Part shown: one piece after another, positions 2,686 through 55,566 of the stretch
Position numbering within the stretch: the stretch's first letter is position 1
Layout: the number at the start of each line of letters is the position of its first letter
NCBI GenBank assembly: GCA_947085765.1
Contig: CAMTXZ010000031.1
Span: 30,283 to 94,282, forward strand
From: an uncultured Chromatiaceae bacterium
Lineage (GTDB): Bacteria > Pseudomonadota > Gammaproteobacteria > Tenderiales > Tenderiaceae
Reading direction: 5' to 3'
Length of the DNA: 64,000 nucleotides
Notes under the pieces: model-generated
What the model was told of the DNA's origin: nothing
The model's input: only the letters and a program-made list of their open reading frames with translations
The model's database searches: none
Program-made: the position numbers and the translations under genes

Positions 2686-2783
2686 GCGACCACACCATCG
2701 AATCAATGGGCGGGCTCATTCTCACATTCGTAGGGTGCGTATAATCGTGGCAGGGGAACCAATCCTTTAAGGGACTTGTATTG

Positions 2784-4193: not shown

Positions 4194-4322
4194 GGTTGGT
4201 GCCAATAACGTCAATGAGACAAACCACGTTACCGGCTTGTCTCCGAGCAGCAAGTAGGCTGGACTTGGAGTTTTTCGAAAAAACTGGGGCATTTGATTGA
4301 ACAATATCTATGGGTGGTGTTT

Positions 4323-7622: not shown

Positions 7623-10037
7623 CTACGACGTGACGCCACGCTGTGCAAAGCGTGCGTGCGCCTGTGTCTTTAACCACACATCCAGCTCATCGGCAGGCAC
7701 TGGGTAACTGATCCAGTAGCCTTGCGCCTGATCGCACCCCAGCTCGGCCAGTTTTTTCATCACTGCAAAACTCTCCACCCCCTCCGCTACCACCCGCAAA
7801 CCCATATTGTGACCAAGATCAATTGTCGAGCGCACGATCACCAGGTCTTCGCCGTTATCGAGCATGTCGATGACAAAGGATTTGTCGATCTTGATCTCCA
7901 CCACTGGCAACTGCTTGAGATAAACAAGCGACGAGTACCCTGTGCCAAAGTCATCAATCGATAGCCCTACCCCCATCTCATTGAGTTTTTTCAGGGTATC
8001 CATGGCACGCAGTGGATCGGCCATGATGGCGCTTTCGGTGATTTCAAAGAGCAGCTGGCTAGCCGGCACTTGCCACTCACTAATGACTTTACCGATCTGA
8101 TCAGCGAGTTGTTGATCCTGCAGGTGGGTGGCGGAAAGATTAATCGCCATGATGAGATTGACCCCGGCTTGTTGCCATAGATGCGACTGCCGCAACGCCT
8201 CCTCCAGAACATATAGAGTAAGTGGTCGGATAAGGCCGGTCTGCTCTGCCAGCGGAATAAACTCATCTGAAAACAACAGACCACGTTGTGGGTGTTGCCA
8301 ACGTACCAGCGCCTCGACGCCGGTAACAATATTCAATTTGAGATCCACTTTTGGCTGGTAACAGAGCATCAGCTCGTTGTTCTCAATAGCACGCCGCAAC
8401 TCACCCGCCAGGGCGAGACGCATGACGCTGTGCTGATCCTGCTCCGGGCTGTAGATAACAAAATCTTTGGCGGCGCGTTTGGCAACATACATCGCCACAT
8501 CGGCATGGCGCATCAACGTCGAGCTGTCGGTGCCGTGCTCGGGAAACAGCGCAATGCCGATGCTGATGCCAACATGCAGGCTATGGTCATCAACGATGAT
8601 AGGTTCATCAAGGACCGCCGCCAGCTTACGGGCGGCATTGATGGCGTCATGCTCGCCGGTGATGGCTGGCAGTACCACTGCAAATTCGTCACCACCCAGG
8701 CGCGATATTGTGTCCGATTCACGCAGTGCCGCACACATACGGATGGCCACCTGCTGCAGCACCACATCACCATAGTGATGACCGAGTGTATCGTTGATCT
8801 CTTTGAAACGATCCAGATCGGCAATGAATAACGCAACCGGCTGTTGTTTGCGTTGTGCTGTCATGACGGCATGGCGCAAACGGTCGTTCAGCAGCAGGCG
8901 ATTGGGCAATTCGGTAAGCGAATCATGCAGCGCCTGATGTTCAAGTTGCTGATTGAGCAGTGCCAATTCACGGGTACGTTTGGCAACACGCTGCTCCAGC
9001 TCCTCCTGCATCGCCTTGATGCCAACCTCATAATGTTTACGTTCGGTGATGTCGCGAACGATGGCGATATATAACACTCCTTCATCGCGCCAGAGTTCGC
9101 TCACCGCCATCTCAACAGGAAAGGTGTGGCCGTCGCGATGCCGCCCAACACTCTCCTGGGTGATGGCGCTTGTGCGTGGCGGAAAGGTGGAGTGGATGCC
9201 GTGGACCAGTAGTCCGGTCAACGGCCGGCCTATCACCTCGCTGGCTTGATAACCAAACAGCTCCTCAGCCGCCGGGTTCATCGATTCAATATCGCCCCAG
9301 CCACGAATGGTAATAATGCCATTGACCACATTGTCCATAATGGCGCGAATATGGGTTTCACCTACCACCAGCTTGGTGCGCATCAACTCCAGATCCTCGG
9401 CGAGACCGACAATCTCATCAACACTTGAACTGACCTCCAGATGCTCACCAGTACGCCCGGCAATGATTTTGCGTGCAGCACGACGCAGTTGTTGCAACGG
9501 CCGGGTCACTTGTGGCGCAATAACCGCCAGCAGTAACAGTGACAAAATTATGTAGCCGCCCGCCAACAGCATGCCACGTTGATAAGTACTCTGAATCTGC
9601 TCTTGGGTAGACGCCTCGTCATAGCCTAATTGCAGCAATGCATCCCTCCCCTCGAAGGGAACACGCAGGGCGATGTAATAAACGTTATCGCCATGATCAC
9701 CAAAAAAGAAATCTTCTTGAAATAACACATTTGCAGCGGCTCTATTGCCGGAGGAAGAGAGCGTCCGGCCCCCCTCCAGGATGAGCTTGGCATAAACAAT
9801 CCGCCCGTCGATGAGGTTCTCATCCAGGGTATCGACAATCTGCCTGGTACCACTGGTTGTAGAAAGATGGTTGGCTAGTTGATGCGCGCTATGACGCGCG
9901 GCATTAATAAACTGCTCTTGATAACCGTGTTCAACAAGCTTGAGCACCCAGCTGAACAGGATGGAGATGAGCACAGCATGAATCAGCACACCGCCAATCA
10001 CAATGTAACTCGCAAACCCCCAGCGCCAGCGTTTCAA
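7623..10037 (-). CDS. Membrane sensor with periplasmic domain, HAMP, PAS, GGDEF and EAL domains (diguanylate cyclase/phosphodiesterase)
   Basis: 804 aa. Two TM segments flank a roughly 130-aa periplasmic domain. GGDEF motif RLGGDEF, EAL region (ELMLCYQP…, DDFGTGYSSL). Confidence 0.9.
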   Translation of the reverse strand: MKRWRWGFASYIVIGGVLIHAVLISILFSWVLKLVEHGYQEQFINAARHSAHQLANHLSTTSGTRQIVDTLDENLIDGRIVYAKLILEGGRTLSSSGNRAAANVLFQEDFFFGDHGDNVYYIALRVPFEGRDALLQLGYDEASTQEQIQSTYQRGMLLAGGYIILSLLLLAVIAPQVTRPLQQLRRAARKIIAGRTGEHLEVSSSVDEIVGLAEDLELMRTKLVVGETHIRAIMDNVVNGIITIRGWGDIESMNPAAEELFGYQASEVIGRPLTGLLVHGIHSTFPPRTSAITQESVGRHRDGHTFPVEMAVSELWRDEGVLYIAIVRDITERKHYEVGIKAMQEELEQRVAKRTRELALLNQQLEHQALHDSLTELPNRLLLNDRLRHAVMTAQRKQQPVALFIADLDRFKEINDTLGHHYGDVVLQQVAIRMCAALRESDTISRLGGDEFAVVLPAITGEHDAINAARKLAAVLDEPIIVDDHSLHVGISIGIALFPEHGTDSSTLMRHADVAMYVAKRAAKDFVIYSPEQDQHSVMRLALAGELRRAIENNELMLCYQPKVDLKLNIVTGVEALVRWQHPQRGLLFSDEFIPLAEQTGLIRPLTLYVLEEALRQSHLWQQAGVNLIMAINLSATHLQDQQLADQIGKVISEWQVPASQLLFEITESAIMADPLRAMDTLKKLNEMGVGLSIDDFGTGYSSLVYLKQLPVVEIKIDKSFVIDMLDNGEDLVIVRSTIDLGHNMGLRVVAEGVESFAVMKKLAELGCDQAQGYWISYPVPADELDVWLKTQAHARFAQRGVTS

Positions 10038-10492
10038 TGGACGCTACCTTGCCAGATCACAGCAATTACCACTACGCCAGAACCAGCACTTATTTGATCC
10101 TGCCACATAAACGTGACCGTACTGGGCTGCGTACGCAGGACGCGTAACAGCGCTTGCTGATCTGTATAGACTGGCGGCTGGATACCGCTCTGACGTACCA
10201 CATTGGCAAGCAGTTGGCGTTCATACAGGGGAGCGGACATAAACAGAACTTTTTGTAAAAACACTTGGTATAGCAACGATTCAGTACGGTTGATAACTGC
10301 AATCAGGCGGCGTTGTTGCTGGGCAACTGGCAGTCCCAAAAACAGCCGACGGATTTCAATGTTGGTCAGGTTAATATTATTAGCTCCGACGTGAGTCACC
10401 AACACCAGTGAGCGGACCTCGTTTGCCACGCCGGAGGGACTGATTAGCGTCACGAACAGGATCATCACAAAGCGTGCTACAAGCCGGCTCAT
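10034..10492 (-). CDS. Hypothetical secreted/periplasmic protein co-transcribed with the GGDEF/EAL sensor
   Basis: MSRLVARFVMILFVTLISPSGVANE… has a signal-peptide-like N-terminus. Its stop overlaps the sensor start (ATGA at 10034-10037) and its start overlaps the stop of the upstream outer-membrane protein frame (ATGA at 10489-10492). Confidence 0.5.
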   Translation of the reverse strand: MSRLVARFVMILFVTLISPSGVANEVRSLVLVTHVGANNINLTNIEIRRLFLGLPVAQQQRRLIAVINRTESLLYQVFLQKVLFMSAPLYERQLLANVVRQSGIQPPVYTDQQALLRVLRTQPSTVTFMWQDQISAGSGVVVIAVIWQGSVH

Positions 10493-11564
10493 GGCAGCGC
10501 TGCACTCCATTGCAGCGCCACCTGATTAAAGCGCCGACCAAACTGATCCATGCTGGCCAGTTCAAACTTTAACGCCTGGCTGCCAGAAAGCTGGTAACGC
10601 GCTCCAACAAGATTACGATGACGCACAAACCCTGGAAGCTGTTGCAGGAAGAGACTCGCCTGCCCCTGATAACTCCCTTCGCTGCGACCATAGAGTATCC
10701 AATCATGGTTGAGCCAGTATTCTGGTTGCAGGTAGGCGTAACCGAAACCTTCGTTTTTATTATCACCGGAGGTCAGATCAAGGCGCAGATCAATCCATGT
10801 CGCCGACAGGCTCAGATGCCAAGCCCGTAACGAGGTATTGATATAACCGCCGAATATTTTTTGCGCCACATCAGTGATTCCACTAACAGACGAGGGGATC
10901 TGTACGTAACCTGCATACAGACCACTATCATCAAAAATGGCGTCTATGTTACGTCTGGATATGGCGCTGACAATCGAAAGTCGGTAATCACCCTCTTGAG
11001 GATGAAGAACATCCAACGCCTTGATGTAGCCAGGCGTCAGCTCTGGACCCAGACCGACATTCAGGGTGTAGTGAGTAATATAGGCTGCATCTTCATAGGC
11101 CGCCTCAATCACCGCGCCAGTAAGATGAGTCGGAATCACACCGCCACTATCCTCAAACTCAATCAGGCCCGGGCGATAAATGGTCGTTTGCAGATAGGCG
11201 CCATGATGGTACTTGCGATTCCATGGGTCCAGCGCACTATGCAAACGGCCGAACCATATCTGGCTACCTTGCGGGCTGACCCAACCGACCGCCAGACGTT
11301 CCAGGTCTCGCTCCTCGCCATTCGCAAGCAGCTCTGCCAGCAAGCGGGTCTGTTGATACGCAGCAGTGTAGAAAAAATTGACGGCAACAGAGGAGGCCTG
11401 CTGCTCCAGGGGGGGGGCTGTTTGCTATTCTGAGGCAGCAGGACCTCGGGAAAAACGATCATCTGCCCTTTGTAATCAGCGCAGGCAGGAGCGCTGCACA
11501 GCAGCGTCGCTGCTATACAGGCAACTACCTGCGTTAACCATTGGCAACAGACGGGGCTTTTCAT
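10489..11564 (-). pseudogene. Outer-membrane-type protein gene split by a frameshift at a G9 (C9 on the coding strand) homopolymer
   Basis: The signal-peptide ORF (MKSPVCCQWLTQVVACIAATLLCSAPACA…SKQPPPW, 11564 down to the tract) and the 284-aa ORF (to 10489) are in different frames. The downstream frame is open through the tract (…APPLEQQASSVAVNFFYTAAYQQTRLLAELLANGEER…) and closed by TAG 3 codons upstream of it. One extra G (10) or two fewer (7) would give a single roughly 358-aa secreted protein rich in aromatic/β-strand-like segments. Confidence 0.55.
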
Positions 11565-11727
11565 GCTTTAAAGAAACTGCCTCTTTAATTTTTAGGGCAC
11601 TGACAGAAAAAGCCGTGATGCAGCAACGATACTAAAACGCTGATCACCAGGGTTATGTCGCCTGCTAGGAAGACAAACCCCAACATCACAAAGTTACAGC
11701 CTCTCCAAAGAGAAAAATCTGCCGTAA

Positions 11728-11764
11728 ACAAAGCGGACAAGACATCCATGCCTTGTCCGCTTTA
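11728..11764. terminator. GC-rich hairpin downstream of the VWA lipoprotein gene (possible bidirectional terminator)
   Basis: aaagcggacaag-acatccatgc-cttgtccgcttta, a perfect 11-bp stem. U-tract is weak. Confidence 0.4.
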
Positions 11765-11777
11765 TGACGTTAAATAA

Positions 11778-12953
11778 CTACAGTGGAGCGGTGATGACCT
11801 TTGCGTCTGGACCACCGGCACGAATTTTGAAGTTGTACTGTCCCGCCTGTCCTGTGGCCTTATTGGTCACCACCAGAGTGATCTTGTAGTCACCCGGTGG
11901 CAAAGGGATCTCTGCGCCACGCGTCTGGAGTGTGGTGAACTCTTTCATAACACTCTGGAAAAGCTGGGCAACATTTTCACTGCTGGGATTGGATTGGAAG
12001 GTTCCGTGGCCGGCTGTGGCGATCTGCTGTAACTCATCTTTATTAATGGCAGAACCCAGACCAATCACGTGAGTGGTCAGACGTGGATGGTTGGCGATGC
12101 TCTGTTTAGCCGCCTCCAGCGTGGTGGCCAGTGTGCCAAACTGATTGTAACTGGCGCTGGTATCGGTAATAAGTGGCTGGCTAGGTCTGCTGCTACTATT
12201 GTCAACCCAGCTGTAATTATCGGCACCGTCAGAAAAGACCAGCATCACGTACTGGTCACGTGCGCCGCTGAAGACACCTTTGTCATATTGCGATTTCATG
12301 TTTTTGGCCATCACATCCACTGCCGAATAGAGCTTGGTGAACGCACCCGGCGTGGGGGTGGGAATGGCAAGGATATCCGCTGGCTGCCAATAACGCGCTG
12401 CGCTGGGCACATCCTGACTTTGATTGAGTACCGCATCAAACCATACCATCGAAAATTTAACTTCGCCGGGACGGTTTTTCCAGAGATCAAGAACCTCTTG
12501 ATAGCTGTCACGCGCAGCGTTTTTCATTGGCACAAATGCTGGCGGGGTGTGCTGGGTCATGGAGTAGCTGGCGTCCAGCACCATGCCAAAATAGAGGTTG
12601 ACCTTAAGATCTTCGGCAGACTGGCTGAGCAGTGATTCTGTATCCGGGGGACCATCATTGACACGAATCTGAACATCAAACTCATTGGCCGCGAGTGGCT
12701 GCCCGGCATTATCCCGTACCGAGAACTGCATGATCATCTGGGTAGTACTGTTAGAGGATTTCCACGACACCGTCGGCGGTATCGGTACGCTCAGTTGCAG
12801 GCCAGATTTTGTCCCTGCACCACCCGGTGTGCCGGTGTTGCCTGGGGTGCCTGGGGCATCGGGGTTGTAACCGCCACCACAGCTGGCGAGAAGCGGCAGC
12901 ACTAACAGCGACAAAATAGATACGGGATATTTAAAACGTGATACTACAGACAT
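11778..12953 (-). CDS. Lipoprotein with von Willebrand factor type A (VWA) domain
   Basis: Lipobox LLASCGGG. Gly/Pro-rich linker (PGTPGNTGTPGGAGT). MIDAS-like motif VLDASYSM. Confidence 0.75.
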   Translation of the reverse strand: MSVVSRFKYPVSILSLLVLPLLASCGGGYNPDAPGTPGNTGTPGGAGTKSGLQLSVPIPPTVSWKSSNSTTQMIMQFSVRDNAGQPLAANEFDVQIRVNDGPPDTESLLSQSAEDLKVNLYFGMVLDASYSMTQHTPPAFVPMKNAARDSYQEVLDLWKNRPGEVKFSMVWFDAVLNQSQDVPSAARYWQPADILAIPTPTPGAFTKLYSAVDVMAKNMKSQYDKGVFSGARDQYVMLVFSDGADNYSWVDNSSSRPSQPLITDTSASYNQFGTLATTLEAAKQSIANHPRLTTHVIGLGSAINKDELQQIATAGHGTFQSNPSSENVAQLFQSVMKEFTTLQTRGAEIPLPPGDYKITLVVTNKATGQAGQYNFKIRAGGPDAKVITAPL

Positions 12954-24024: not shown

Positions 24025-26322
24025 TCAAATCGCCTTTTTATAACCATACTCCTGGCGCAAACTATGGGCCGCCGCCACCATCCGTTGCAGCGCCTCATCA
24101 ACCTCGGGCCACTGCCGCGTCTTCAGACCACAATCGGGATTCACCCAGAGCCGCTCCACTGCGATGTGTGCGGTCGCTTTTTGCATTAACAAAACCATCT
24201 CGGCGATTGTAGGCACATTGGGCGTATGGATGTCGTACACCCCCGGGCCGATGCCATTGGGATAATGAAACCGCTCAAATACCTCCAGCAACTCCATGTC
24301 AGAGCGTGATGTCTCGATGGTGATCACATCCGCATCCATCGCCGCAATGGCCGCCATGATGTCGTTGAACTCCGAGTAACACATGTGGGTATGGATCTGT
24401 GTCTCATCGACCACCACCGCCGCCGTGACCTTAAAGGCCCGCACCGCCCAGTCAAGATAATGCTTCCAGTCCGCCTGACGTAGCGGCAACCCCTCGCGCA
24501 GGGCCGCCTCATCGATCTGAATCACCTTGATGCCCGCCCGTTCAAGATCGGCCACCTCATCACGCAGGGCAAAGGCAATCTGCAGACAGCTCGTGGCGCG
24601 GGGCTGGTCATCACGCACAAAGGACCAGTTGAGGATCGTCACCGGCCCGGTCAACATCCCCTTCATCGGCTTTTTAGTCAGCGACTGGGCATAACGCGCC
24701 CACTCTACGGTCATGGCGGCGGGACGACTCACATCACCATAGATGATCGGGGGTTTAACACAGCGTGAACCGTAGGATTGCACCCAGCCGTTCTGGGTGA
24801 AGGCAAACCCCTCCAGCTGCTCGCCAAAGTATTCCACCATGTCATTACGTTCCGCCTCACCATGGACCAGCACATCCAGCCCCAGTTGTTCCTGTGCACC
24901 CACAGCAAAGGCGATCTCCTCACGCATGCTCGCCTGATAAACAGCGGGGGTGACAACCCCCTGTTTGTACTGCTGGCGAATCTGACGTATCGCCGCCGTC
25001 TGCGGGAAGGAGCCAATAGTAGTGGTCGGAAACAGCGGCAGTTTGAGCCACGCCTGCTGCACAACACTCCTGACAGAATAGGGTGAATCGCGCTCGGTCA
25101 ACGCCTCATCAAACGCCGCCAGCCGTGCCTTGACCTCAGCTTTATGGATCCGCCCCGACGCTTTGCGTGCCTGACAGAGGCGGGCTGAATGGTCCAGCGC
25201 CTCAGCCACCGCTGTCACACCCTCGCACAAGGCCCGTTTGATCACTGCCAGCTCGTCCAGCTTCTGCAGTGCAAAGGCGAGCCATGACTTGATCTCCGGT
25301 TCCAGCTTAACCTCATGAGCAAGATCCACCGGCACATGCAGCAGCGAGCAAGAGGGGGCGATCCAGAGCCGCTCCCCGAGCTGCGCCTTAAGCGGGGCCA
25401 GCCACTGCACCAGCTGCGCCAGATCACTGCGCCAGATGTTGCGACCATCCACCACCCCCAGCGAGAGCACCTTGTAGTTGGGCAACCAACTCAATACCGC
25501 CGCCACCTCCTCCGGCGCCCGGACCGCATCAATATGGATGCCCGCCACCGGCAGACGACAGAGGGTGGTGAGGTTGTCACGCAACGGTCCAAAATAGGTG
25601 GTCAGCAGCTGTTTTATCCCGCGTGACTGCAACCGTGTATAGACTGCCTCAAACGCCGTCTTCCACGCCTGCGGCAGATCCAGCGCCAGGATAGGTTCAT
25701 CAATCTGCACCCACTCGACACCGCTGCGCTCCAGCCGTTGCAGGATCTCGCCATAGACCGGCAGCAACGCCTCCAGCAGCTGCAACTTGTCAAAATCCGC
25801 CCCCTTGCCCTTCGCCAGCCAGAGATAACTCAAAGGCCCCAGCAAGACCGGCTTGACGCGAAACCCCAACGCCTGCGCCTCCGCCACCTCATTAAACAGC
25901 TTGTTTGATGAGAGCTTAAATTTCTGCTCTGCCACCAGCTCCGGCACAATGTAGTGGTAGTTGGTATCAAACCACTTGGTCATCTCGCAGGCGTTGACCG
26001 GCTCACCGCCTGGGGCGCGACCCCGCGCCATGCGAAAATAGGTGGTGATGTCGACCTCCGCACCAAACCAGTGAAAACGCTGCGGCACAACCCCCAGGGT
26101 GGCCGACATATCCAGCACCTGGTCATACCAGGAGAAGTCGCCCACCGGCAGTAGCTCCACCCCCGCTGCCGCCTGCTGCTGCCAGTGCTGCGCCCGCAAC
26201 CGCCGCCCCAGCTGCTCGAGCTCGGCAAACTCACTATCGCCGCGCCAATACTGCTCCAGCGCCCGCTTCAACTCACGCTGTGCACCAATGCGCGGAAAAC
26301 CCAAATTGTGTTGAATCGTCAT
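24025..26322 (-). CDS. metE: Cobalamin-independent methionine synthase (5-methyltetrahydropteroyltriglutamate--homocysteine methyltransferase)
   Basis: 765 aa. [26 protein letters not shown]…, two UroD-like MetE domains. Confidence 0.95.
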
Positions 26323-26377: not shown

Positions 26378-26390
26378 TGAATCAATTTCA
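26378..26390. promoter_or_regulatory. Candidate MetR binding site in the metE-metR divergent intergenic region
   Basis: TGAATCAATTTCA matches the MetR consensus TGAA-N5-TTCA and sits between the divergent metE and metR starts. Confidence 0.45.
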
Positions 26391-26423: not shown

Positions 26424-27314
26424 ATGTTTATCGAAATTCGCCACCTGCGTAGCCTCCAGGCGATCGAGCAGAGCGGCAGTCTGGCACGGGCTGCCGAGAC
26501 CCTGCACCTCACCCAGTCGGCCCTCTCACACCAGATCAAAGCGCTTGAAAACTACTTGGATACCGCGCTGTTTCTTCGTAGCACCAAGCCGCTCAAGCTC
26601 ACCCATGCCGGGCAAAAGCTGGTGGATATGGCCCATCAGGTGCTGCCCGATATCGCCACACTAGAGGCCGATCTGCACCGCATGGCCAAGGGCGAGGCGG
26701 GACGGCTCCATATCGCAATCGAGTGCCACGCCTGTTTTGAGTGGCTGCTGCCGGTGCTCGACAGCTACCGCCAGCAGTGGCCCGAGGTCGAGGTGGATAT
26801 CCGCATCGATGTCAGTTTTAACCCCATCCCCGCGATTCAGAAGGGCGAGATCGACCTGCTCATCAGCTCCGACCCCATCACCACCCCTGACATCGTCTTC
26901 AAACCACTCTTTGCCTACGCCCCGCTGCTGGTGGCCGCCGCTGGCCACCCGCTGGCCGGCAAAAAATTCATCGAACCGGCGGATCTGGCCGACCAGACCC
27001 TGATCACCTACCCGGTAAAACGGGAGCGTCTGGATATCTTTACCCGTTTTCTCCAACCCGCCGGCATCGAACCCGCCACCATCCGCCAGAGCGAACTCAC
27101 CGCCGTGATCCTGCTGCTGGTGGCCAGCCAGCGTGGTGTGGCCGTTCTGCCCGATTGGGTGCTGCGCGAGTCGCTGCAAAAAAACAGCCTGATCACCCGA
27201 CCCCTGGGCAAAAACGGCATGTCAGGGCAGCTCTACGCGGCCGTTCGCAGCAGTGACCAGCACGCCAGATTTATCACCGACTTCATCGCTTTGGCGCAAC
27301 AAGGCAACCCATAA
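26424..27314 (+). CDS. metR: LysR-family transcriptional activator MetR
   Basis: MFIEIRHLRSLQAIEQSGSLARAAETLHLTQSALSHQIKALE…; divergent from metE, as in enterobacteria. Confidence 0.85.
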   Translation: MFIEIRHLRSLQAIEQSGSLARAAETLHLTQSALSHQIKALENYLDTALFLRSTKPLKLTHAGQKLVDMAHQVLPDIATLEADLHRMAKGEAGRLHIAIECHACFEWLLPVLDSYRQQWPEVEVDIRIDVSFNPIPAIQKGEIDLLISSDPITTPDIVFKPLFAYAPLLVAAAGHPLAGKKFIEPADLADQTLITYPVKRERLDIFTRFLQPAGIEPATIRQSELTAVILLLVASQRGVAVLPDWVLRESLQKNSLITRPLGKNGMSGQLYAAVRSSDQHARFITDFIALAQQGNP

Positions 27315-27389
27315 ACGGCGCTGAAATAGCACTTGCTCCCCGCTTTTTTATCGTATATCTTGTGCCAAGGCTTCGGTTGAGACACAAGA

Positions 27390-27580
27390 TGTTGTGCTCA
27401 TGTCCATAGGGAACCCGGTGTAAATCCGGGACTGTCGCGCAGCGGTAAAGGGGAACAGAGACCACCGGCATTATGCCAGGCACCGTCCAGATAGACGGCA
27501 AGCTGTGGTCCGAGGTGAATCACTATCAGTGGTTCGTGCCCCTAAGTCCGAATACCTGCCGAGGCCGTCATCACAACCGT
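27390..27580 (+). ncRNA. Cobalamin (AdoCbl) riboswitch in the 5' leader of nrdAB
   Basis: …AUAGGGAACCCGGUGUAAAUCCGGGACUGUCGCGCAGCGGUAAAGGGGAAC… and the B12-box AAGUCCGAAUACCUGCCGAGGCC closely match the E. coli btuB riboswitch core (…AAUAGGGAAUCCAGUGCGAAUCUGGAGCUGACGCGCAGCGGUAAGGAAAGG…CCCGAAGACCUGCCGGCC). Confidence 0.85.
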
Positions 27581-27708
27581 GATGTAACACCCGGATCTCG
27601 CGTCAAGGTCACAGGGTGGAGAGCAGCCACACCTTCTGATCGGGGCCCTCCCCTTTTTGCTCTCCCCTCTCACTTTGCGCGGTCCCCTAACTTACTGACG
27701 AGGGAACC

Positions 27709-30510
27709 ATGCAGACAGAACAGACAACCCGCCATACCCCCCAACCACGCCCGGACAACAGCGCACAGCTCTGCCATTGCGAGGTGATTCGCCGCAACGG
27801 CACACTCACCCATTTTAATGCCGACAAAATCAGCATCGCCCTCAGCCGTGCCTTTCTTGCCGTTGAAGGCCCGCAGGGCGAAGGGTCACGGCGCATCCAT
27901 GAGATTGTCGAACAGCTCAGCGACGAGATTGTTGCCGCGCTATTTCGCCGTCTGCCACACGGCGGCACACTGCACATCGAGGCGATTCAGGATCAGGTCG
28001 AACTGGCGCTGATGCGTAACGGCCACCACAAGATCGCCCGCGCTTACGTGCTCTACCGCGAGGAGCACGCCCGCCAGCGCGCCACGCAACAGCCCCCCGC
28101 GCAAGCGGCCCCCCTGCCTAACATCATTGGTAGCGACGGCAGCCGCGCCCCTCTCAACTTGGCACGACTCACCACGCTGATTGACGAGGCGTGCAGCGGC
28201 CTGGCCGATATCTCCAGCGAGCCGATTCTGCAGGCGACCCTGCACAACCTCTTTGATGGCATCACGGAAAAAGAGCTGGCGCAGGTGCTGGTGATGAGTG
28301 GCCGCAGCCTGATCGAACAGGAGCCAAACTACACCTTTGCCGCCGCCCGGCTACTGCTCGACAGCCTGCGTCAGGAGGCGTTGAGCTTTCTTGCCGGCCA
28401 CGCCGAGCGCGCCACCCAGGCTGAGATGACCAACCGCTACGCCGACTACTTCAGCAGCTACATCCACCGTGCCGCCGAACTGGAGCTGCTCGACAAGAGC
28501 CTGACCCGTTACGACCTGAAACGGTTAGGTGCGGCGCTACAGCCGGAGCGTGACCAGCAGTTCACCTATCTGGGACTGCAAACCCTTTATGACCGCTACT
28601 TTATTCACGCCGGCATCCACGGCAACAATAGCCGTTTTGAACTGCCACAAGCCTTTTTCATGCGGGTTGCCATGGGGCTGGCGATCAACGAAATCGACCG
28701 TGAGGCGCGGGCCATTGAGTTCTATGAGCTGCTCTCCTCGTTTGATTTCATCTGCTCAACCCCCACGCTGTTCAACTCGGGCACCCTGCGCCCGCAGCTC
28801 TCCTCCTGCTATCTCACCCACGTGCCCGACGACCTGGATGGCATCTACAGCGCCATCAAAGATAACGCCCTGCTCTCAAAATTTGCCGGCGGCCTGGGCA
28901 ATGACTGGAGCGCCGTGCGCGGTCTGGGCGCCGCCATCAAGGGGACCAACGGCACCTCGCAAGGGGTGGTGCCGTTTCTCAAGGTGGCCAACGACACCGC
29001 CGTGGCGGTCAACCAGGGTGGCAAACGTAAAGGGGCCGTCTGTGCCTACCTGGAGACGTGGCACATCGACATTGAGGAGTTTCTGGATCTGCGTAAAAAC
29101 ACCGGTGACGAACGGCGACGCACCCACGACATGAATACCGCCAACTGGATTCCTGACCTGTTTATGGAACGTGTCGGCGACGAAGCGCAGTGGACTCTCT
29201 TCTCCCCCGACGAGACCCCCGATCTGCATGACCTCTATGGCCAGCCATTCAAAAAACGCTACGAAGAGTACGAGGCCAAGGCCGACCGGGGCGAGATGAA
29301 GATCTGGAAACGACTGCCCGCCCTGGCGCTGTGGCGCAAGCTGCTCGGCCAACTGTTTGAGACCGGCCACCCCTGGATCACCTTCAAAGATAGCTGCAAC
29401 CTGCGCTATACCAATCAACACGCCGGGGTGGTGCACTCATCCAACCTCTGTACCGAGATCACGTTGCATACCAATAACAACGAGATTGCGGTCTGCAACC
29501 TCGGCTCCATCAACCTTGCCACCCATACCGGCGAGCATGGCATCGACCGCGAAAAGCTCGAACAGACCATCGACATCGCCATGCGTATGCTCGACAACGT
29601 CATCGACTACAACTACTACTCCGTACCCCAAGCACGCAACTCCAACCTGCGCCACCGCCCGGTGGGGCTGGGGCTGATGGGGTTTCAGGATGCCCTTTAT
29701 ATACAGAACATCCCCTACGCCTCAGAGGCGGCCATCGAGTTTGCCGACCACTCCATGGAGCTGATCGCCTACTACGCCATCCAGGCCTCAACCGATCTGG
29801 CGCAGGAGCGTGGCTGTTACTCCAGCTTTGCCGGCTCGCTCTGGAGCCGTGGCATCCTGCCGCTCGACTCGATTGAACTACAGGCCGCCGCCCGTGGCGA
29901 CTCGCTGGAGATGGATCGCAGCAGCCAGCTCGACTGGCACTCCCTGCGGCAGCGGGTGCAGACCGTTGGCATGCGTAACAGCAACTGTCTCGCCATCGCC
30001 CCCACGGCCACCATCGCCAACATCTGCGGCGTCTCGCAGTCGATTGAACCGGCCTTCCAGAACCTGTTTGTAAAATCCAACCTCTCCGGTGAGTTCACCG
30101 TGGTCAACCCCTATCTGGTCAAGGATCTGAAGGCGCTGGGGCTGTGGGACGAGGTAATGGTCAATGACCTGAAATATTTCGACGGTTCACTCCAGGCCAT
30201 CGACCGCATTCCCGCCCACCTGAAAGAGCGTTACGCCACCGCCTTCGAGATCGACCAGCGCTGGCTGATCGAGGCCGCCTCACGCCGCCAGAAGTGGATC
30301 GACCAGTCCCAGTCACTCAACCTCTACCTGGCGCAAGCCAGCGGCCCCACACTCGACAAGCTCTACAAACTGGCGTGGCGGCGTGGTCTGAAGACCACCT
30401 ACTACCTGCGCACACTCGGCGCCACCAAGATGGAGGGCAACAACCGTCAGACAGTGGCCGAACCAGCAGCCTGTTCGATCCTGGACCCCTCCTGCGAGGC
30501 GTGCCAGTAA
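27709..30510 (+). CDS. nrdA: Class Ia ribonucleoside-diphosphate reductase α subunit with extended N-terminus (two ATP-cone-like regions)
   Basis: 933 aa. An N-terminal ATP cone (VIRRNGTLTHFNADKISIALSRAF…) is followed by a second degenerate cone, then the RNR catalytic barrel (…NLCTEI…). Confidence 0.95.
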   Translation: MQTEQTTRHTPQPRPDNSAQLCHCEVIRRNGTLTHFNADKISIALSRAFLAVEGPQGEGSRRIHEIVEQLSDEIVAALFRRLPHGGTLHIEAIQDQVELALMRNGHHKIARAYVLYREEHARQRATQQPPAQAAPLPNIIGSDGSRAPLNLARLTTLIDEACSGLADISSEPILQATLHNLFDGITEKELAQVLVMSGRSLIEQEPNYTFAAARLLLDSLRQEALSFLAGHAERATQAEMTNRYADYFSSYIHRAAELELLDKSLTRYDLKRLGAALQPERDQQFTYLGLQTLYDRYFIHAGIHGNNSRFELPQAFFMRVAMGLAINEIDREARAIEFYELLSSFDFICSTPTLFNSGTLRPQLSSCYLTHVPDDLDGIYSAIKDNALLSKFAGGLGNDWSAVRGLGAAIKGTNGTSQGVVPFLKVANDTAVAVNQGGKRKGAVCAYLETWHIDIEEFLDLRKNTGDERRRTHDMNTANWIPDLFMERVGDEAQWTLFSPDETPDLHDLYGQPFKKRYEEYEAKADRGEMKIWKRLPALALWRKLLGQLFETGHPWITFKDSCNLRYTNQHAGVVHSSNLCTEITLHTNNNEIAVCNLGSINLATHTGEHGIDREKLEQTIDIAMRMLDNVIDYNYYSVPQARNSNLRHRPVGLGLMGFQDALYIQNIPYASEAAIEFADHSMELIAYYAIQASTDLAQERGCYSSFAGSLWSRGILPLDSIELQAAARGDSLEMDRSSQLDWHSLRQRVQTVGMRNSNCLAIAPTATIANICGVSQSIEPAFQNLFVKSNLSGEFTVVNPYLVKDLKALGLWDEVMVNDLKYFDGSLQAIDRIPAHLKERYATAFEIDQRWLIEAASRRQKWIDQSQSLNLYLAQASGPTLDKLYKLAWRRGLKTTYYLRTLGATKMEGNNRQTVAEPAACSILDPSCEACQ

Positions 30511-30603: not shown

Positions 30604-31731
<1,128 letters not shown>

Positions 31732-42402: not shown

Positions 42403-43761
42403 GTGGCATACTGGCGCGATATTGATTCACCATTGATGGTTAACTTAATAATGCAGATACGCAGACAGCTGTCCGCCTTACTCCTCACAGCCGGGTTAAG
42501 CTTCTCCAGCTATGCCGCAGATAACGGGATACTGGCCGAGTACAACTACTACGAAAGCGGCAAAATCGAACTCAATGCCGGCAACTATCAGCAGGCCATC
42601 ACCCACTTCATCAACCTGCAAAAGCTCTACCCCAACAGCCCCTATATTCCCCAGGCCAAATTGGAGAGCGCCTACGCCCATTACAAACTGGGTGAAGCTC
42701 AGGCCGCCATCGACCTGCTACAGGAGTTTTTACTGGCCGAGAATAAACATCCACAAAAACCCTACGCCTTCTATCTCGCTGGCTTGGCCAGGTATCAGCA
42801 GGCACTCGATCTGATGGATAGCCCTACCTCTGCTGAAGATACCACTAGCGCCCGCACCGCCACCCAACAGGCCATCGGCTACTTTACTCAGTTGCTGGAC
42901 AGTTTCCCCGGCAGTCAGTACGGCGAGGATATTGGTAAAAAGACCACCTACCTGCTGGAAAAACTGGTACAGCAACGCATTAAGCTGGAGAAGAAGGATA
43001 CCGACCGCAGCCGCCTGCAACAGATTCAGGTCGAAAGCGACCAAGCCATAGTCTGGCTGCTGAAACAGCCTGCCAACCACTACACACTGCAACTGGTGCG
43101 CAGCCCTGACTACAACACCACCTTTATGGTCTCACTCCAGTATAAATTGGAAAAAAACGCCTTTATCATCGAGACACAGACCAGCGACGGCACAGGTTAC
43201 ACACTGCTTTACGGCGTCTACCCCAGCAAAAACGAGGCGCTGCAGGCAGGCGCCAATCTGCCCCAAGCCATCCTTGAGACCCAGCCGCTGGTGCGCGAAC
43301 TCAGCTCGGTGCAGACAGAGATCGTCGATAGCCGCGTGATTGCGGGCGACAGCACGCTACAAGCCCCGCCTCCCACCACAGCAGAAACAGCACCAGCGAG
43401 CCAGGAGTTCGTCAAGCCACCCCCAAGCAACAGCGCCACGCAGATGTCGGACGAAGAGTGGCTGTTGTCACAACACCCCATGGACTACACGGTGCAACTG
43501 TTGGGAGCGCCTAACGAAGCTAGCCTGACCAAATTCATCAACGACCACAATCTTGCCGGCCAAACCGTCCGCTACCGCAGTCTGCGCCGGGATGGCAGCA
43601 GCTGGTACTCACTGCTGTATGGCAGTTATCCCGACAATATCACCGCCATCGAAGCCGCGCGCCAGATCGGCATCAGCCTCCGTATCGATCAACCCTGGAT
43701 CAGACGTTTCCAGAGTGTGCAGAACGAAATCGACAGCAGCAAAAGCAGTAAACGCCAGTGA
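42403..43761 (+). CDS. BamD-like TPR protein fused to two C-terminal SPOR (peptidoglycan-binding) domains
   Basis: The N-terminal roughly 200 aa are homologous to BamD (…YPNSPYIPQAKLESAYAHYKLGE…). The C-terminus carries two SPOR-like repeats (…HYTLQLVRSPD…GYTLLYGVYPSKNEA…; …DYTVQLLGAPNEASL…WYSLLYGSYPD…). Signal peptide but no lipobox. It is divergent from rluD, the canonical bamD position. Confidence 0.65.
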   Translation: MAYWRDIDSPLMVNLIMQIRRQLSALLLTAGLSFSSYAADNGILAEYNYYESGKIELNAGNYQQAITHFINLQKLYPNSPYIPQAKLESAYAHYKLGEAQAAIDLLQEFLLAENKHPQKPYAFYLAGLARYQQALDLMDSPTSAEDTTSARTATQQAIGYFTQLLDSFPGSQYGEDIGKKTTYLLEKLVQQRIKLEKKDTDRSRLQQIQVESDQAIVWLLKQPANHYTLQLVRSPDYNTTFMVSLQYKLEKNAFIIETQTSDGTGYTLLYGVYPSKNEALQAGANLPQAILETQPLVRELSSVQTEIVDSRVIAGDSTLQAPPPTTAETAPASQEFVKPPPSNSATQMSDEEWLLSQHPMDYTVQLLGAPNEASLTKFINDHNLAGQTVRYRSLRRDGSSWYSLLYGSYPDNITAIEAARQIGISLRIDQPWIRRFQSVQNEIDSSKSSKRQ

Positions 43762-44765
43762 GCAAACCTCTCTGCCGTTCACTCATCACCCTGCTCTTTG
43801 GCATCACCCTACTCACTGGCTGCGTCACCGTACCTCCACAACCAGATGCCACACCAGCGCCACAACCCGACATCTGGTCCGCGCAACGCTACTACGACGA
43901 AGCGCGTCAGGCCCAGGCCAATGGCGATTTCAGCAGCGCACTCACGCAACTTGCCGAACTTCAACAGCGCTACCCCGACAGCGCTTACACCAAACTGGTC
44001 GCGCTGGAGAGTAGCTACGCCCATTACAAAATCGCAGATTATCCGGCCGCCATCCAGGCCGCTGACCGGTTCATTGCCCAACAAGCAAACGCCAGCGCTG
44101 CGGATTACGCCTGGTACCTGAAGGGCATGGCCCACCTCAACCTTGCTGGCCAAAACAGTACAAACAGCGCCACATTTGATTCCGACAACAGCCGCACGGC
44201 CTACCAGAGCCTGCTCCATTTGGCGCAAGCGTTTCCCAACAGCCCGTATCGAACCGAGGCACTGCAACAGCTACAGCCGCTGCGCACCCAGCTGGCGGAA
44301 CACGAACTCGACATCACCTATGCCCTGCTGCAACAGGGCAACCAACAGGGTGCGCGTGATCGCGCCGCCTATCTGCTCAAGAGTTACCCGGAGACAACGG
44401 CCGCCAATACAGCACAGCTCATCCTGCAAAGTGGCAATGCCAACACCATCCACCCCGAGGGGTTGCAGCACGAAAAGTGGCTGATGCAGCAGAACCCTAA
44501 CCACTTCACCCTCCAGATTGCCGGTAGCCACGACAAACAGTGGCTTGATAAGTTAGTCGCCCAGCACTCCCAACAGATCGTCTGGTTCCAGCGCCTCTGG
44601 CAAGGACAACCGTGGTATACCGTGCTCTATGGCCACTACAACAGCGCCGCTGAAGCAGAGGCGGCCATGCCTGCTGTCAAATCAACCCTGGTGGTTAACG
44701 AAGCCTGGGTACAGCCATTTTCGACCATACAACAGCGCCTTCACGACACCGATGCCAACCGCTGA
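43758..44765 (+). CDS. BamD-like lipoprotein with one C-terminal SPOR-like domain
   Basis: Lipobox LLTGC. BamD-homologous TPR region (…YPDSAYTKLVALESSYAHYKIAD…). C-terminal …HFTLQIAGSHD…WYTVLYGHYNSAAEAE…. The start overlaps the upstream stop. Confidence 0.65.
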   Translation: MSKPLCRSLITLLFGITLLTGCVTVPPQPDATPAPQPDIWSAQRYYDEARQAQANGDFSSALTQLAELQQRYPDSAYTKLVALESSYAHYKIADYPAAIQAADRFIAQQANASAADYAWYLKGMAHLNLAGQNSTNSATFDSDNSRTAYQSLLHLAQAFPNSPYRTEALQQLQPLRTQLAEHELDITYALLQQGNQQGARDRAAYLLKSYPETTAANTAQLILQSGNANTIHPEGLQHEKWLMQQNPNHFTLQIAGSHDKQWLDKLVAQHSQQIVWFQRLWQGQPWYTVLYGHYNSAAEAEAAMPAVKSTLVVNEAWVQPFSTIQQRLHDTDANR

Positions 44766-44841
44766 AGCTGCGACAAGCCAACCCCGGTTATGCTAGGCTA
44801 CGACACCAATAATCAAGACCATCACAACACTGAAACAGCCG

Positions 44842-45594
44842 ATGTCACTCATAAAATCACTCACCTCACTGTTCCTCATCACCCTGCTGCTGGTCGGTTG
44901 CGCCACCACCGACCTCGACCCCAGCACATGGCCCGCCGAGCGCTTTTACAAAGAGGCCAAACAGGCCCTTAATGACCGCGACTACGAAATCGCCATCAAG
45001 CGTTATGAAGACCTGGAGATCCACCACCCCTTCAGCCCTTATACCCAACAGGCACAGCTGGAGGTGGGTTACGCCTACTTCAAATATGACGAGCCGGACT
45101 CTGCCATCGCCGCCGCCGAGCGCTACATCAAACTCTACCCACGTGCCGACAATGTCGACTACGCCTACTATCTGCGCGGACTGGTAAGCTTCGAACGCGG
45201 CCTCAGCACGTTCGACCTCGCACTGGGTCTCGACATCACCAAACGGGAACCCAAATCAGCCAAAAATGCCTTTTTCTATTTTGAAGAGCTGGTCAAACGT
45301 TACCCCAATAGCCCATATGCCGAAGATGCCAAACGGCGCATGGTCGATCTGCGCAACCGCCTCGCCACCTATGAGATGCACGTTGCCGACTACTACATGC
45401 GCCGTGGTGCCTATCTCTCCGCCGCCAACCGCTGCCAGGAGGTGCTGGAAAACTACCCGCAGACCCCAGCCATTCCCGACGCCCTGGTGATGATGGTGCA
45501 GGCCTACCGCGAACTCGGCATTGACGACCTGGCCGAAGATACACGCAAGGTGCTCCAGCTCAACTATCCCGACAGGCTCAGTGCATTAAAGTGA
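44842..45594 (+). CDS. bamD: Outer membrane protein assembly factor BamD (canonical length)
   Basis: 250 aa. Lipobox LLVGC; TPR lipoprotein with …HPFSPYTQQAQLEVGYAYFKYDE… and …YPNSPYAEDAKRRMVDLRNRLA…. Confidence 0.8.
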   Translation: MSLIKSLTSLFLITLLLVGCATTDLDPSTWPAERFYKEAKQALNDRDYEIAIKRYEDLEIHHPFSPYTQQAQLEVGYAYFKYDEPDSAIAAAERYIKLYPRADNVDYAYYLRGLVSFERGLSTFDLALGLDITKREPKSAKNAFFYFEELVKRYPNSPYAEDAKRRMVDLRNRLATYEMHVADYYMRRGAYLSAANRCQEVLENYPQTPAIPDALVMMVQAYRELGIDDLAEDTRKVLQLNYPDRLSALK

Positions 45595-46285: not shown

Positions 46286-47185
46286 CTACAGCGCCACAGC
46301 TTCCTCCACCTGGCGCATGTTTTTTACCTGTAAAGAATCACTCAGCGCATCCAGCGCAGCACCCACCTCATAATCAAACGCAATGGTCACGTAATCACCC
46401 GCACTCACCGCCATCGGCTCGGCAAGTGGAACAATCAGATACTGGTTATACCAATCAACCGTACGTTGCTCAGCCATCAATATTGCAAGGATGTTTTTTG
46501 TCACCATACGAATAGCGTTTAAGTTGCCATCCCTGGCAATCTTTATCGTTCCATCAAAACTGCATCGCTGCGGTAGCTCGGCATCATAAGTAAAACTCTG
46601 GAATAACGCCGGGTCACTCAACTCACGACTCTTTTCATGGGTAACGGTAGGCTCCTGAAACAGGATCGTCTGGGCGTAATAACCCTCAAAATTAAAATCC
46701 TGCTCAATCGGCTGCACCGCCTGGATACACGCCTCCGGCACAAAGATTGGCAATGGGCCGCCAAACCTCTCCAGATAGCGCTGTTTAAACTGAGCAATCA
46801 TCGCAACCTGTTTTTCACGCAGTAACCCCACATGTAACATTTCACAAATCACCACATCAACAGGCTCAGGCGGAAGATAACGGCTTGCATCCGCCTGAAC
46901 AATCTCCACCCTATCGCCATTTGTGTTCTGGCGCATAATGCGCCGTACAGCCGCCACCAGCTCGGGATTTCGCTCCACACACCAAACATGCCCCGCCTGC
47001 TGCGCCGCAAAAAAAGATAACACCCCGGTGCCGCCACCCAACTCCAACACCCGCGCACCTGGCCGCACCACCTCTTGCAAGGCACGCTTAAAACCCTGCA
47101 TCCGTGCAGTATCATTCAACATGTTGTAATGATATTGCAGCGGGATAAACTGACCCAACTCCAAGTGGTCATATCGGTTGTTCAT
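46286..47185 (-). CDS. PRMT-like class I SAM-dependent methyltransferase (protein arginine N-methyltransferase homolog)
   Basis: …YHYNMLNDTARMQGFKRAL…VLELGGGTGVLSFFAAQ…VDVVICEMLH… matches PRMT motifs (pre-I, I VLD/EVGxGxG, post-I, THW-like region). Likely start MNNRYDHLELG at 47185; the ORF track extends to 47302. Confidence 0.65.
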   Translation of the reverse strand: MNNRYDHLELGQFIPLQYHYNMLNDTARMQGFKRALQEVVRPGARVLELGGGTGVLSFFAAQQAGHVWCVERNPELVAAVRRIMRQNTNGDRVEIVQADASRYLPPEPVDVVICEMLHVGLLREKQVAMIAQFKQRYLERFGGPLPIFVPEACIQAVQPIEQDFNFEGYYAQTILFQEPTVTHEKSRELSDPALFQSFTYDAELPQRCSFDGTIKIARDGNLNAIRMVTKNILAILMAEQRTVDWYNQYLIVPLAEPMAVSAGDYVTIAFDYEVGAALDALSDSLQVKNMRQVEEAVAL

Positions 47186-47433
47186 ACACACTCCTCGATC
47201 AGATTGATTGCAAACAGCCATCACCAGCGGAGTCGTTCGACTCACCACCACATGCCGGCCATCGTCTTCATAACGCAAGGTGCGGGCCAACCAGAAAAAC
47301 ATGCTGGATCGAGGGTGTAACCGCCTTATGACGGCAAGTAGTTGCCGTAACGATTAAAGAAGGATGGCAAGGGCGGAGAAGAGTTGCCTAATCAAGAGAG
47401 CGCTTCAAGGGTAAATACACCTCACAATACCGA

Positions 47434-47848: not shown

Positions 47849-48757
47849 TTACAGCTTCAATGTAAAATTAACCTCGACACCACTAGCAGGCCTATCAACA
47901 GGCACCTCACTATACCCTGAAGAAACACGCCAAACTGGTAGGTTAGGATATAACTCTTTTCCTAAAATGACAGAAAGTACTGCAAGTATTTTGGGACCCA
48001 ATGGAATAATCAGTGGTCGTGAGAATTTATTTAGTGATTGAACCAATGACTTTAAATCTAAATATGTAGAATATGGCTGACATACATCATAGAAAAACAC
48101 ATTATCACTTGATATTGAATCTAATAGGTCTTTGTTATTATCTACAACATCGGTTTCAAATTTGGTAACAGGGCTTTTAGGAATAAAGGTATAAATAAAA
48201 CCTGAATCCAAGAAGTTAGCAACCCCAAGGGCCTTGCTCTTTTCATAACCAAGACCGAATATCACCGAAGTAGGAAGAGATGGATCACCAATGGATCCTC
48301 CAAGCTGAGAAGTTATCTCACAAAGATACTTTATTGGCGTATCTTCATTTGGCGGCGGGATATAATCAGACAAGGTGTACACAACACTTAAAGTGGAATG
48401 TTCAGGGAGCGAATCCATTAAGCTGCAAATAATACAAGCCAACCTATGTCGACTCATAACAGTAATGTCTAACAACACATTTACTGGCCCATCAAAATTT
48501 TTTCCGAATAAAAATCCATCAACATGCCTGCTAACAGACTCATCACCATGCTCTATAATATTAGCTTTAGACTCCAAGTATTTGGATTTATTTACTTGGT
48601 AAGAAAATTTATCGGTATTAATATCATAACCAATGACCAATAATTCTGAGCAATCACTGCCATATTTATCAAATGCAGATATAGCTCTAGACTCAAAGCC
48701 AAGCCCAAAAATTGCCAAATCAAACTCCCCACCAATGAATGATTTTAATATTTTCAT
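47849..48757 (-). CDS. Hypothetical protein, last gene of a four-gene island operon (no family recognised)
   Basis: 302-aa ORF, AT-rich codon usage. The start overlaps the upstream gene stop (48754-48757). Confidence 0.6.
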   Translation of the reverse strand: MKILKSFIGGEFDLAIFGLGFESRAISAFDKYGSDCSELLVIGYDINTDKFSYQVNKSKYLESKANIIEHGDESVSRHVDGFLFGKNFDGPVNVLLDITVMSRHRLACIICSLMDSLPEHSTLSVVYTLSDYIPPPNEDTPIKYLCEITSQLGGSIGDPSLPTSVIFGLGYEKSKALGVANFLDSGFIYTFIPKSPVTKFETDVVDNNKDLLDSISSDNVFFYDVCQPYSTYLDLKSLVQSLNKFSRPLIIPLGPKILAVLSVILGKELYPNLPVWRVSSGYSEVPVDRPASGVEVNFTLKL

Positions 48758-55504: not shown

Positions 55505-55566
55505 TGTTGGACTCCCTTTCAAGCAATTCTGTGCCGCATGCGGCATTGGACAAAATAGATTTCAAA

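Follow-up and report, generated by a model that had tools for sequence, protein, structure and literature searches.

The leader of the nrdAB operon in an uncultured Chromatiaceae bacterium probably contains a functional class-I-type adenosylcobalamin (AdoCbl) riboswitch, which would turn down the operon's class Ia ribonucleotide reductase (RNR) when AdoCbl is present. The operon lies in a 64,000-nucleotide stretch of contig CAMTXZ010000031.1 (positions 30,283 to 94,282 of the forward strand; hereafter the window, in whose numbering all coordinates are given), and its 5' untranslated region (UTR) is located between a metR-like gene and nrdA. Here, we observed in this leader a conserved cobalamin aptamer, covariation in two downstream helices termed P13 and H2, a sequestor hairpin that buries the translation start, and a pair of boxes for the repressor NrdR (Table 1). 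We infer that the ligand is AdoCbl, that its binding switches expression OFF and that the switch acts on translation rather than on transcription.

We scanned the whole window against all 4227 Rfam families and found a single match at gathering level, the Cobalamin family RF00174 (clan CL00101) at 27357-27577 on the plus strand, with 73.7 bits against a gathering threshold of 31.5 and an E-value of 2.8e-16 (cmscan). The alignment spans the full model (positions 1-189 of 189), and the aptamer ends 131 nt upstream of the nrdA start on the same strand. The conserved core GGGAACCCGGUGUAAAUCCGGGACUG starts at 27409, and both the core (GGGAA..GGUG..AAUCC) and a B12 box (AGYCNG..ACCUGCC) closing onto P1 are present. 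The P6 extension is found as well: model positions 86-160 align to 27449-27549, including an inserted hairpin, and L5 and the B12 box are 119 nt apart, compared with 39-53 nt in short-form relatives. Judged by sequence, the aptamer is of the long, AdoCbl-type (class I) architecture, and selectivity for AdoCbl is predicted. A preliminary description, made from the letters of the window, had placed an AdoCbl riboswitch core and B12 box on the nrdA strand, had suggested an Infernal scan with the Rfam model RF00174 as a check and had named the lack of a covariance-model match as the outcome that would speak against it. The full-model match bears this proposal out, and that outcome did not occur. 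The interval given there, 27390-27708, had the right strand and place but began 33 nt late, so that it dropped the 5' strand of P1 (27369-27377) and half of P2, and its 3' part (27578-27708) corresponds to the expression platform rather than to the aptamer. An open reading frame (ORF) of 104 aa at 27473-27787, which runs in a different frame through part of the aptamer and the start of nrdA, was regarded as spurious.

Is a cobalamin riboswitch in front of nrdA a common arrangement? Among 42 genome loci scanned with Rfam, 18 carry a cobalamin-clan riboswitch directly upstream of nrdA, and they belong to Gammaproteobacteria, Alphaproteobacteria and Acidobacteria. The gammaproteobacterial loci include the metagenome-assembled genome (MAG) ND3, Sulfuriflexus (88.9 bits), two MAGs with short-form aptamers (L017 and L015) and a Chromatiales MAG; the others come from Bradyrhizobium, Microvirga, Bosea, Kaistia, Xanthobacteraceae, Aestuariivirga and one Acidobacteria MAG, with 99-140 bits in the alphaproteobacterial riboswitches. 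The nrdA loci of Thioalkalivibrio and Guyparkeria showed no cobalamin riboswitch in the Rfam scan. We further scanned a metagenome collection for the P4-L5 sequence of the window (CCGGRACTGWCGCGCARCGGT), which returned 120 contigs (L082-L201), and in 36 of them nrdA follows 235-670 nt downstream. Thus, the arrangement is common and patchily distributed, as expected of a known regulatory theme, and control of the Pseudomonas-type class Ia RNR by B12 would be widespread, from Gamma- and Alphaproteobacteria to Acidobacteria and dozens of metagenome contigs. In the remaining 84 contigs with this P4-L5 sequence (…ACUGWCGCGCARCGGU), the 900 nt downstream contain no nrdA, and the L5 type of the window is thus not confined to nrdA leaders.

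An identical NrdA protein is recorded in a single place, a 5.3-kb Logan contig from run ERR3478688. The closest species-representative locus is that of the gammaproteobacterial MAG JAKFXL01 ND3_Bin_17 (L002), with 97% identity in NrdA and about 94% in DNA; the next NrdA relatives are found in a Sulfuriflexus sp. (72%) and in Thioalkalivibrio, Guyparkeria, Methylophaga, Pseudomonas and several Alphaproteobacteria (62-70%). Between the window and L002, the metR-nrdA spacer is 98.7% identical (389/394), with 99.1% in the aptamer, where the two differences fall on unpaired positions (27402 and 27490), and 100% (131/131) in the platform. The coding sequences of metR, nrdA and nrdB reach 95.7-96.2% and the nrdA-nrdB spacer 91.6%. 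The leader is thus more conserved than the flanking genes, and together with the recurrence of the arrangement in genomes and metagenomes this supports the earlier assignment of the riboswitch to nrdAB. Within one family of nrdA leaders that have the same NrdR boxes, L5, P13 and platform, we found both long aptamers (105-134 nt from L5 to the B12 box; window, L003, L123 and L193) and short aptamers without P6 extension (39-53 nt; L017, L015, L092, L128, L144, L148 and L199). Of the short ones, L017 matched RF01482, and L015 gave a short RF00174 match with 34.6 bits. In L084, 369 nt (1931-2299) are found at this place, with a large palindromic insertion inside the P6 extension.

The expression platform begins with a small hairpin directly 3' of P1, and hairpins of unrelated sequence occupy the same place in four other leaders (L003, L123, L148 and L193). 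It is followed by P13, which carries CGCG in its loop. Indeed, the motif YUCGCG occurs 3' of the B12 box in all 39 nrdA leaders with the L5 type of the window, and CGCG lies in a hairpin loop in 33 of 33 unique leader segments, on 26 different stems such as GAUC:GGUC, GGCC:GGUC, GAGUC:GACUC, CGCC:GGCG and ACC:GGU. A MAFFT alignment of the P13 segments was out of register because loop lengths vary, and folding of each sequence singly was used instead. The CGCG of L13 (27599-27602) is complementary to the CGCG of L5 (27436-27439), and L13 is the best partner of L5 within 90 nt 3' of the B12 box, which predicts an L5-L13 kissing loop. A second sequence class is provided by the alphaproteobacterial nrdA riboswitches, in which L5 CCCCCGC (GCCCCCGCA) pairs with L13 GCGGGG (GGCGGGGUG) at a calculated -14.6 kcal/mol. 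The complementarity of L5 and L13 in both classes is what a cobalamin-riboswitch kissing loop predicts, and cross-class duplex energies are non-discriminating for the L5 of the window.

Downstream of P13, helix H2 is formed by a 5' strand, GGGUGGAGAGCA, which resembles a Shine-Dalgarno sequence, and a C-rich 3' strand, UGCUCUCCCCUC, which resembles an anti-Shine-Dalgarno sequence. In the platform ensemble it forms with a probability of about 1, it appears in the RNAalifold consensus of six divergent platforms, and 14 of 22 pairs are kept despite changes on both sides. P13 and H2 are partly exclusive because they have nucleotides 27614-27618 in common. The third element, the sequestor hairpin, pairs CCCU (27685-27688) with AGGG (27701-27704) and GGU (27681-27683) with ACC (27706-27708), and its lower stem reaches the first two codons of nrdA. 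Covarying counterparts of the type GGCCC:GGGCC are found in Sulfuriflexus and in metagenome relatives (L003, L123 and L148). A strong Shine-Dalgarno sequence lies 4-9 nt 5' of the AUG in 39 of 39 leaders, with a mean probability of being unpaired of 0.19-0.27 across them. We did not retain folding of the whole leader as evidence, since its z-score of only -1.23 is uninformative in a leader this GC-rich.

In the E. coli btuB AdoCbl riboswitch, which also has a long-form aptamer, L5-L13 kissing couples ligand binding to occlusion of a ribosome binding site that is close to P13. The leader of the window differs in that its ribosome binding site lies about 85 nt 3' of P13, behind H2 and a separate sequestor. 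Based on the elements above, we propose that transcription starts at about 27367 from a promoter whose -10 element is covered by NrdR box 1, with box 2 located 16 bp downstream in the DNA of P2. Ligand binding would fold the aptamer (27369-27566), and the CGCG of L5 would kiss the CGCG of L13, which would lock P13 (27588-27618). Locked P13 would compete with H2 for 27614-27618 and thereby withdraw the Shine-Dalgarno-like GGGUGGAGAGCA from the C-rich anti-Shine-Dalgarno strand. The C-rich strands would then be free to hold the Shine-Dalgarno sequence and the AUG in the sequestor (27675-27714), and translation would be blocked. In this model, translational repression is the most likely mode. Translational control is stated to be the predominant mode in Gammaproteobacteria (PMC12528414).

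Several observations weigh against this proposal. The kissing interaction predicted for the window comprises only 4 bp (-7.2 kcal/mol). In equilibrium folding, the hairpin that contains the Shine-Dalgarno sequence and the AUG forms with L13 either free or blocked (unpaired probability 0.21 versus 0.31), and we therefore found no convincing ON state for the leader of the window; a proximal second C-rich strand (27681-27688) holds the Shine-Dalgarno sequence regardless. A thermodynamic two-state model was likewise rejected, as blocking L13 or forcing the downstream pairing shifts access to the Shine-Dalgarno sequence only slightly, by more than 0.1 in only 12 of 39 leaders. Direct competition of L13 for the sequestor fails in the window too (z-score -0.3) and is significant only in a sister subgroup. 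There, in the largest metagenome subgroup, the 5' strand of P13 together with L13 (CACCUUCGCG) is perfectly complementary to the sequestor (CGCGAAGGUG); overall, complementarity of L13 to the sequestor is at or below 5% of shuffles in 20 of 38 leaders. A clean three-element logic is seen in L098 and L030, where GGGGCGAGAG, CUCUUUCCCC and the Shine-Dalgarno sequence GAGGAGAGG form alternative helices. Finally, we found no nrdJ, B12 supply genes or nrdR within the window, whose annotation contains no metH, btuB or cob gene either. We speculate that the ON state of the window may depend on co-transcriptional folding, or else that regulation may proceed partly via the transcript level, by analogy with Streptomyces and P. 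acnes.

Could a real riboswitch in this leader act wholly on the transcript, by premature termination (intrinsic or Rho-dependent) or by mRNA decay? We regard this as rather unlikely, although the translational ON state is not clear in silico for the leader of the window and related systems point in this direction: in P. acnes, RNA sequencing showed that most nrdAB transcription ends before the first gene (PMC3848588), and for Streptomyces nrdABS transcriptional control is stated in the title of Borovok 2006 (as cited in PMC12528414). Within the leader, GGGGCCCUCCCC and the UUUUU behind it (27642-27658) weakly resemble a terminator, and U-runs follow platform helices in L123 and L148. However, the GGGGCCCUCCCC stem has only 4 bp and lies within the loop of H2, and the U-run is not kept in L003, L017, L098 and L193. 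The scanner called no terminator-like site in 27200-27800, and we rejected an intrinsic terminator in the leader, the one motif being weak and not conserved. What is present instead is the conserved hairpin that buries the Shine-Dalgarno sequence and the AUG. Rho-dependent effects that are secondary to translational repression are possible.

That the aptamer is an evolutionary relic which has lost its response to B12, the conclusion drawn for the nrdAB 5' UTR of P. aeruginosa, appears very improbable. The P. aeruginosa operon is alike in its orthologous NrdA family (62-66% identity to Pseudomonas NrdA), its long leader and its control by NrdR, and the finding that this orthologous leader gave no B12 response (PMC12528414) counts against a working switch in the window, as does a score below that of the alphaproteobacterial nrdA riboswitches. 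Yet the score exceeds the gathering threshold more than twofold, every core motif is intact, as is the B12 box, the flanking genes are less conserved than aptamer and platform, and P13 and L13 are conserved with covariation. Moreover, the P. aeruginosa case is not comparable, because five Pseudomonas/Stutzerimonas nrdA loci (L047, L051, L061, L075 and L056) gave no cobalamin-clan match even at E<=10, whereas the match in the window is strong; on the same result we rejected the idea that Pseudomonas nrdA leaders are decayed riboswitches. This agrees with the experiment, in which the long P. aeruginosa nrdAB 5' UTR was not a B12 riboswitch (PMC12528414), and sharpens its negative result, as no aptamer is detectable there and orthologous leaders elsewhere have one. 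Least probable of all, to the point of being hardly credible, is an activating (ON) corrinoid switch or a sensor of a non-adenosylated or other corrinoid. There is a precedent for a corrinoid riboswitch that activates (Procknow 2023), the selectivity of cobalamin riboswitches varies (Kennedy 2022; both as cited in PMC12528414), and short aptamers without P6 extension do occur in the same leader family. Against this, the window has the long, AdoCbl-type architecture, its minimum free energy fold with aptamer and P13 has an OFF geometry, in that the Shine-Dalgarno sequence and the AUG are sequestered as well, and the described cases upstream of B12-independent RNRs are all repressing (PMC545781, PMC3848588).

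Besides the riboswitch, predicted to repress in response to AdoCbl, the leader holds a DNA-level signal that the preliminary description had missed, the tandem NrdR boxes. An NrdR operator is defined as two partially palindromic 16-bp boxes with a linker of 15-16 bp and the key positions C4, A6, A8, T9, T11 and G13 (PMC13584703). In the window, the pair has a 16-bp linker and matches 11 of the 12 key positions, and box 2 is the only site within three mismatches of ACACWATATATWGTGT in the 64 kb (chance expectation 0.37 per window). Box pairs with at least 10 of 12 key positions in the same layout are present in 39 of 39 related leaders, compared with 21 of 1950 shuffles (1.1%), and in 12 of 13 alphaproteobacterial, unclassified-proteobacterial and acidobacterial leaders, with a count of 9 in the acidobacterial L062. 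The boxes accompany a putative sigma-70 promoter, whose layout (TTGCyn, 17 nt, TATnTT) recurs in L003, L017 and L015 and which a consensus scanner missed because its -35 element fits only 3 of 6 positions. From this layout, transcription probably starts at about 27367-27369, just 5' of P1.

The linker between the NrdR boxes encodes the 5' strand of P1, and the DNA of box 2 encodes P2. With box 1 covering the -10 element, the same 50 bp would thus serve a nucleotide-sensing repressor as DNA and a B12 sensor as RNA, and two layers of control would result, NrdR responding to the nucleotide pool at initiation and B12 acting on the mRNA. This interleaved layout is kept in nrdA leaders of Gammaproteobacteria, Alphaproteobacteria and Acidobacteria. 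It is conceivable, if somewhat short of probable, that operator and aptamer constitute one composite, co-evolving module. Joint control of nrdAB by NrdR and a riboswitch is already known (Streptomyces; P. acnes, PMC3848588). A text search, which did not reach key Streptomyces papers, turned up no account of NrdR boxes interleaved with P1 and P2. Such a leader would be a compact natural system whose DNA-level and RNA-level controls use the same sequence, and the interleaving may explain why a single nrd-box was seen at the P. acnes nrdAB promoter.

Table 1. Features of the nrdAB leader and of selected neighbouring genes in the 64,000-nt window.
Feature	Position	Strand	Basis or remark
Putative sigma-70 promoter of nrdAB	27333-27361	+	Inferred from sequence; -35 TTGCTC 27333-27338, 17-nt spacer, -10 TATCTT 27356-27361
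NrdR box 1, ATCGTATATCTTGTGC	27350-27365		5/6 key positions (G at position 4); overlaps -10 hexamer
Cobalamin riboswitch aptamer, long form with P6 extension	27357-27577	+	cmscan, RF00174
P1	27369-27377 paired with 27558-27566	+	RF00174 alignment
NrdR box 2, ACACAAGATGTTGTGC	27382-27397		6/6 key positions; inside transcribed aptamer; palindrome is the P2 hairpin
L5 loop, UCGCGC	27435-27440	+	RF00174 alignment
B12 box, AGUCCGAAUACCUGCC	27545-27560	+	RF00174 alignment
Small hairpin directly 3' of P1, AUCACaaccGUGAU	27570-27583	+	In all leader folds
P13 hairpin	27588-27618	+	Loop CGCG 27599-27602, within CGCGUCA
Helix H2	27614-27669	+	GGGUGGAGAGCA 27614-27625 pairs with UGCUCUCCCCUC 27658-27669
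Sequestor hairpin	27675-27714	+	Buries Shine-Dalgarno GAGGGA 27700-27705 and AUG 27709-27711; in every fold tried
nrdA, class I RNR alpha subunit, 933 aa, Pseudomonas-type	27709-30510	+	NF005544, 1632 bits (cutoff 965)
nrdB, beta subunit, 375 aa, class Ia-like	30604-31731	+	NF005550, 350 bits; PF00268
MetR-like LysR regulator	26424-27314	+	Best match MetR equivalog, below cutoff
MetR-type box, TGAATCAATTTCA	26378-26390		In 101-nt spacer between metE and the metR-like gene
metE	24025-26322	-	Divergent from metR-like gene
CARF6-family protein (defence-like cluster)	47849-48757	-	PADLOC PDLC01918, 388 bits
ORC/CDC6-like ATPase (defence-like cluster)	48754-50571	-	PF24389, 327 bits
Calcineurin-like phosphoesterase with wHTH domain (defence-like cluster)	50543-51733	-	Weak match to DS9_1 anti-phage phosphoesterase
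Dam-family methyltransferase (defence-like cluster)	51726-52520	-	

Control of nrdAB by B12 is already established in Streptomyces and Propionibacterium, and the window is a further example, solid but ordinary. In 2003, B12 elements were predicted upstream of B12-independent RNR genes in genomes that encode NrdJ (Rodionov/Vitreschak), a principle restated in PMC545781. The preliminary description had likewise linked such switches to genomes that also encode NrdJ, in agreement with PMC545781, PMC3848588 and Borovok 2006 as cited in PMC12528414, and had predicted an nrdJ elsewhere in the genome. As the citing papers give it, the B12 riboswitch of Streptomyces nrdABS was shown experimentally (Borovok 2006, J Bacteriol 188:2512; cited in PMC12528414 and PMC13584703). 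By these accounts, nrdABS of Streptomyces coelicolor is alike in its 5' UTR cobalamin riboswitch on a class Ia nrdAB, its NrdR boxes and its repression by B12, and it differs in that it belongs to an actinobacterium with control reported at transcription, whereas the platform of the window looks translational, with no terminator. In P. acnes, the nrdAB promoter is overlapped by an nrd-box, and the 5' UTR contains a cobalamin riboswitch; transcription is attenuated, most transcripts ending before nrdA, and nrdRJ is encoded in the same genome (PMC3848588). One box was reported there, from a search limited to -60..+15, whereas the window has two boxes with a 16-bp linker, the second of them inside the aptamer. 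The nrdDG genes of delta-proteobacteria also encode a B12-independent RNR under a B12 element in genomes with NrdJ, but this RNR is of class III rather than class Ia, and the presence of NrdJ was shown there (PMC545781). With the window, an uncultured gammaproteobacterial lineage related to the sulfur cycle joins these cases as a well-supported example. By implication, cobalamin is available to the organism, which probably has a B12-dependent reductase as an alternative, and this is of use for metabolic reconstruction of the MAG.

The RNR itself is, within reason, of class Ia, B12-independent and oxygen-dependent. NrdA contains the ATP cone (PF03477, in two stretches), the all-alpha domain (PF00317) and the barrel (PF02867). 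Aligned to the class Ic subunit (R2c) of C. trachomatis (1syy and 2ani) and to 6y2n, NrdB has an Asp at the position of E89 of R2c and a Tyr at that of F127, with the motifs ...TTSDIL... and ...HTWTYQH... compared with ...STAESL... and ...HTHTFLY... in C. trachomatis R2c. The solved R2 structures nearest to NrdB are of class Ic (6y2n; C. trachomatis 1syy/2ani/4d8f; E 1e-81 to 1e-66), and E. coli R2 is distant (E about 1e-14). Because the Asp and the Tyr are present, the class Ia label is reasonable despite these nearest structures, and the signature supports the earlier call of a class Ia, B12-independent enzyme. The Trp in HTWTY, where R2c has HTHTF, is unusual. The earlier gene calls of metR and nrdA on either side of the leader were right as well. 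A tblastn search with NrdA against all 201 retrieved loci found neither a second RNR paralogue nor an nrdJ near nrdA. Within the window, the 963-aa and 419-aa ORFs at 54287-58458 (-), considered as a second RNR, are sucA and sucB and not nrdAB, and a weak match to a 'corrinoid protein-associated methyltransferase' at 46286-47302 is a generic SAM methyltransferase that is not B12-related.

The neighbouring metE had been described as being under a MetR-type box instead of a riboswitch, and this view holds. The site at 26378-26390 is the single match to TGAA-N5-TTCA in the 64 kb, and the 101-nt metE-metR spacer has no Rfam match, so that there is no riboswitch in it. Thus, metE of the window adjoins the nrdAB region but has lost, or never had, a riboswitch and has a MetR box instead. 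Elsewhere, a second RF00174 element is found beside the riboswitch-controlled nrdAB, in L062 (4250-4452, -), L019 (10068-10264, +), L027 (2888-3115, +) and L048 (4300-4499, -). It precedes metE clearly in L062 and L019 and probably in L027 and L048. In those genomes, the B12-independent enzymes metE and nrdAB are recurrently paired, each with its own B12 element.

Other genes of the window include ilv/leu genes, ettA, a c-di-GMP phosphodiesterase gene, sucAB-lpd, sucD and nadE. For several ORFs at 2781-5003 (+) and 10034-12953 (-), family assignment is lacking or minimal: the sole domain of a 470-aa protein is HSDR_N_2 (type I restriction R, N-terminal), and ORFs of 236, 158, 284 and 391 aa have no Pfam or NCBIfam match. 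A four-gene defence-like cluster at 47849-52520 (-) adjoins sucAB-lpd (Table 1). At 42403-45594 (+), three tandem paralogues of BamD/YfiO-like lipoproteins (452, 335 and 250 aa) are encoded, the first two with a C-terminal SPOR domain, and such a triplication of a bamD-like gene is unusual.

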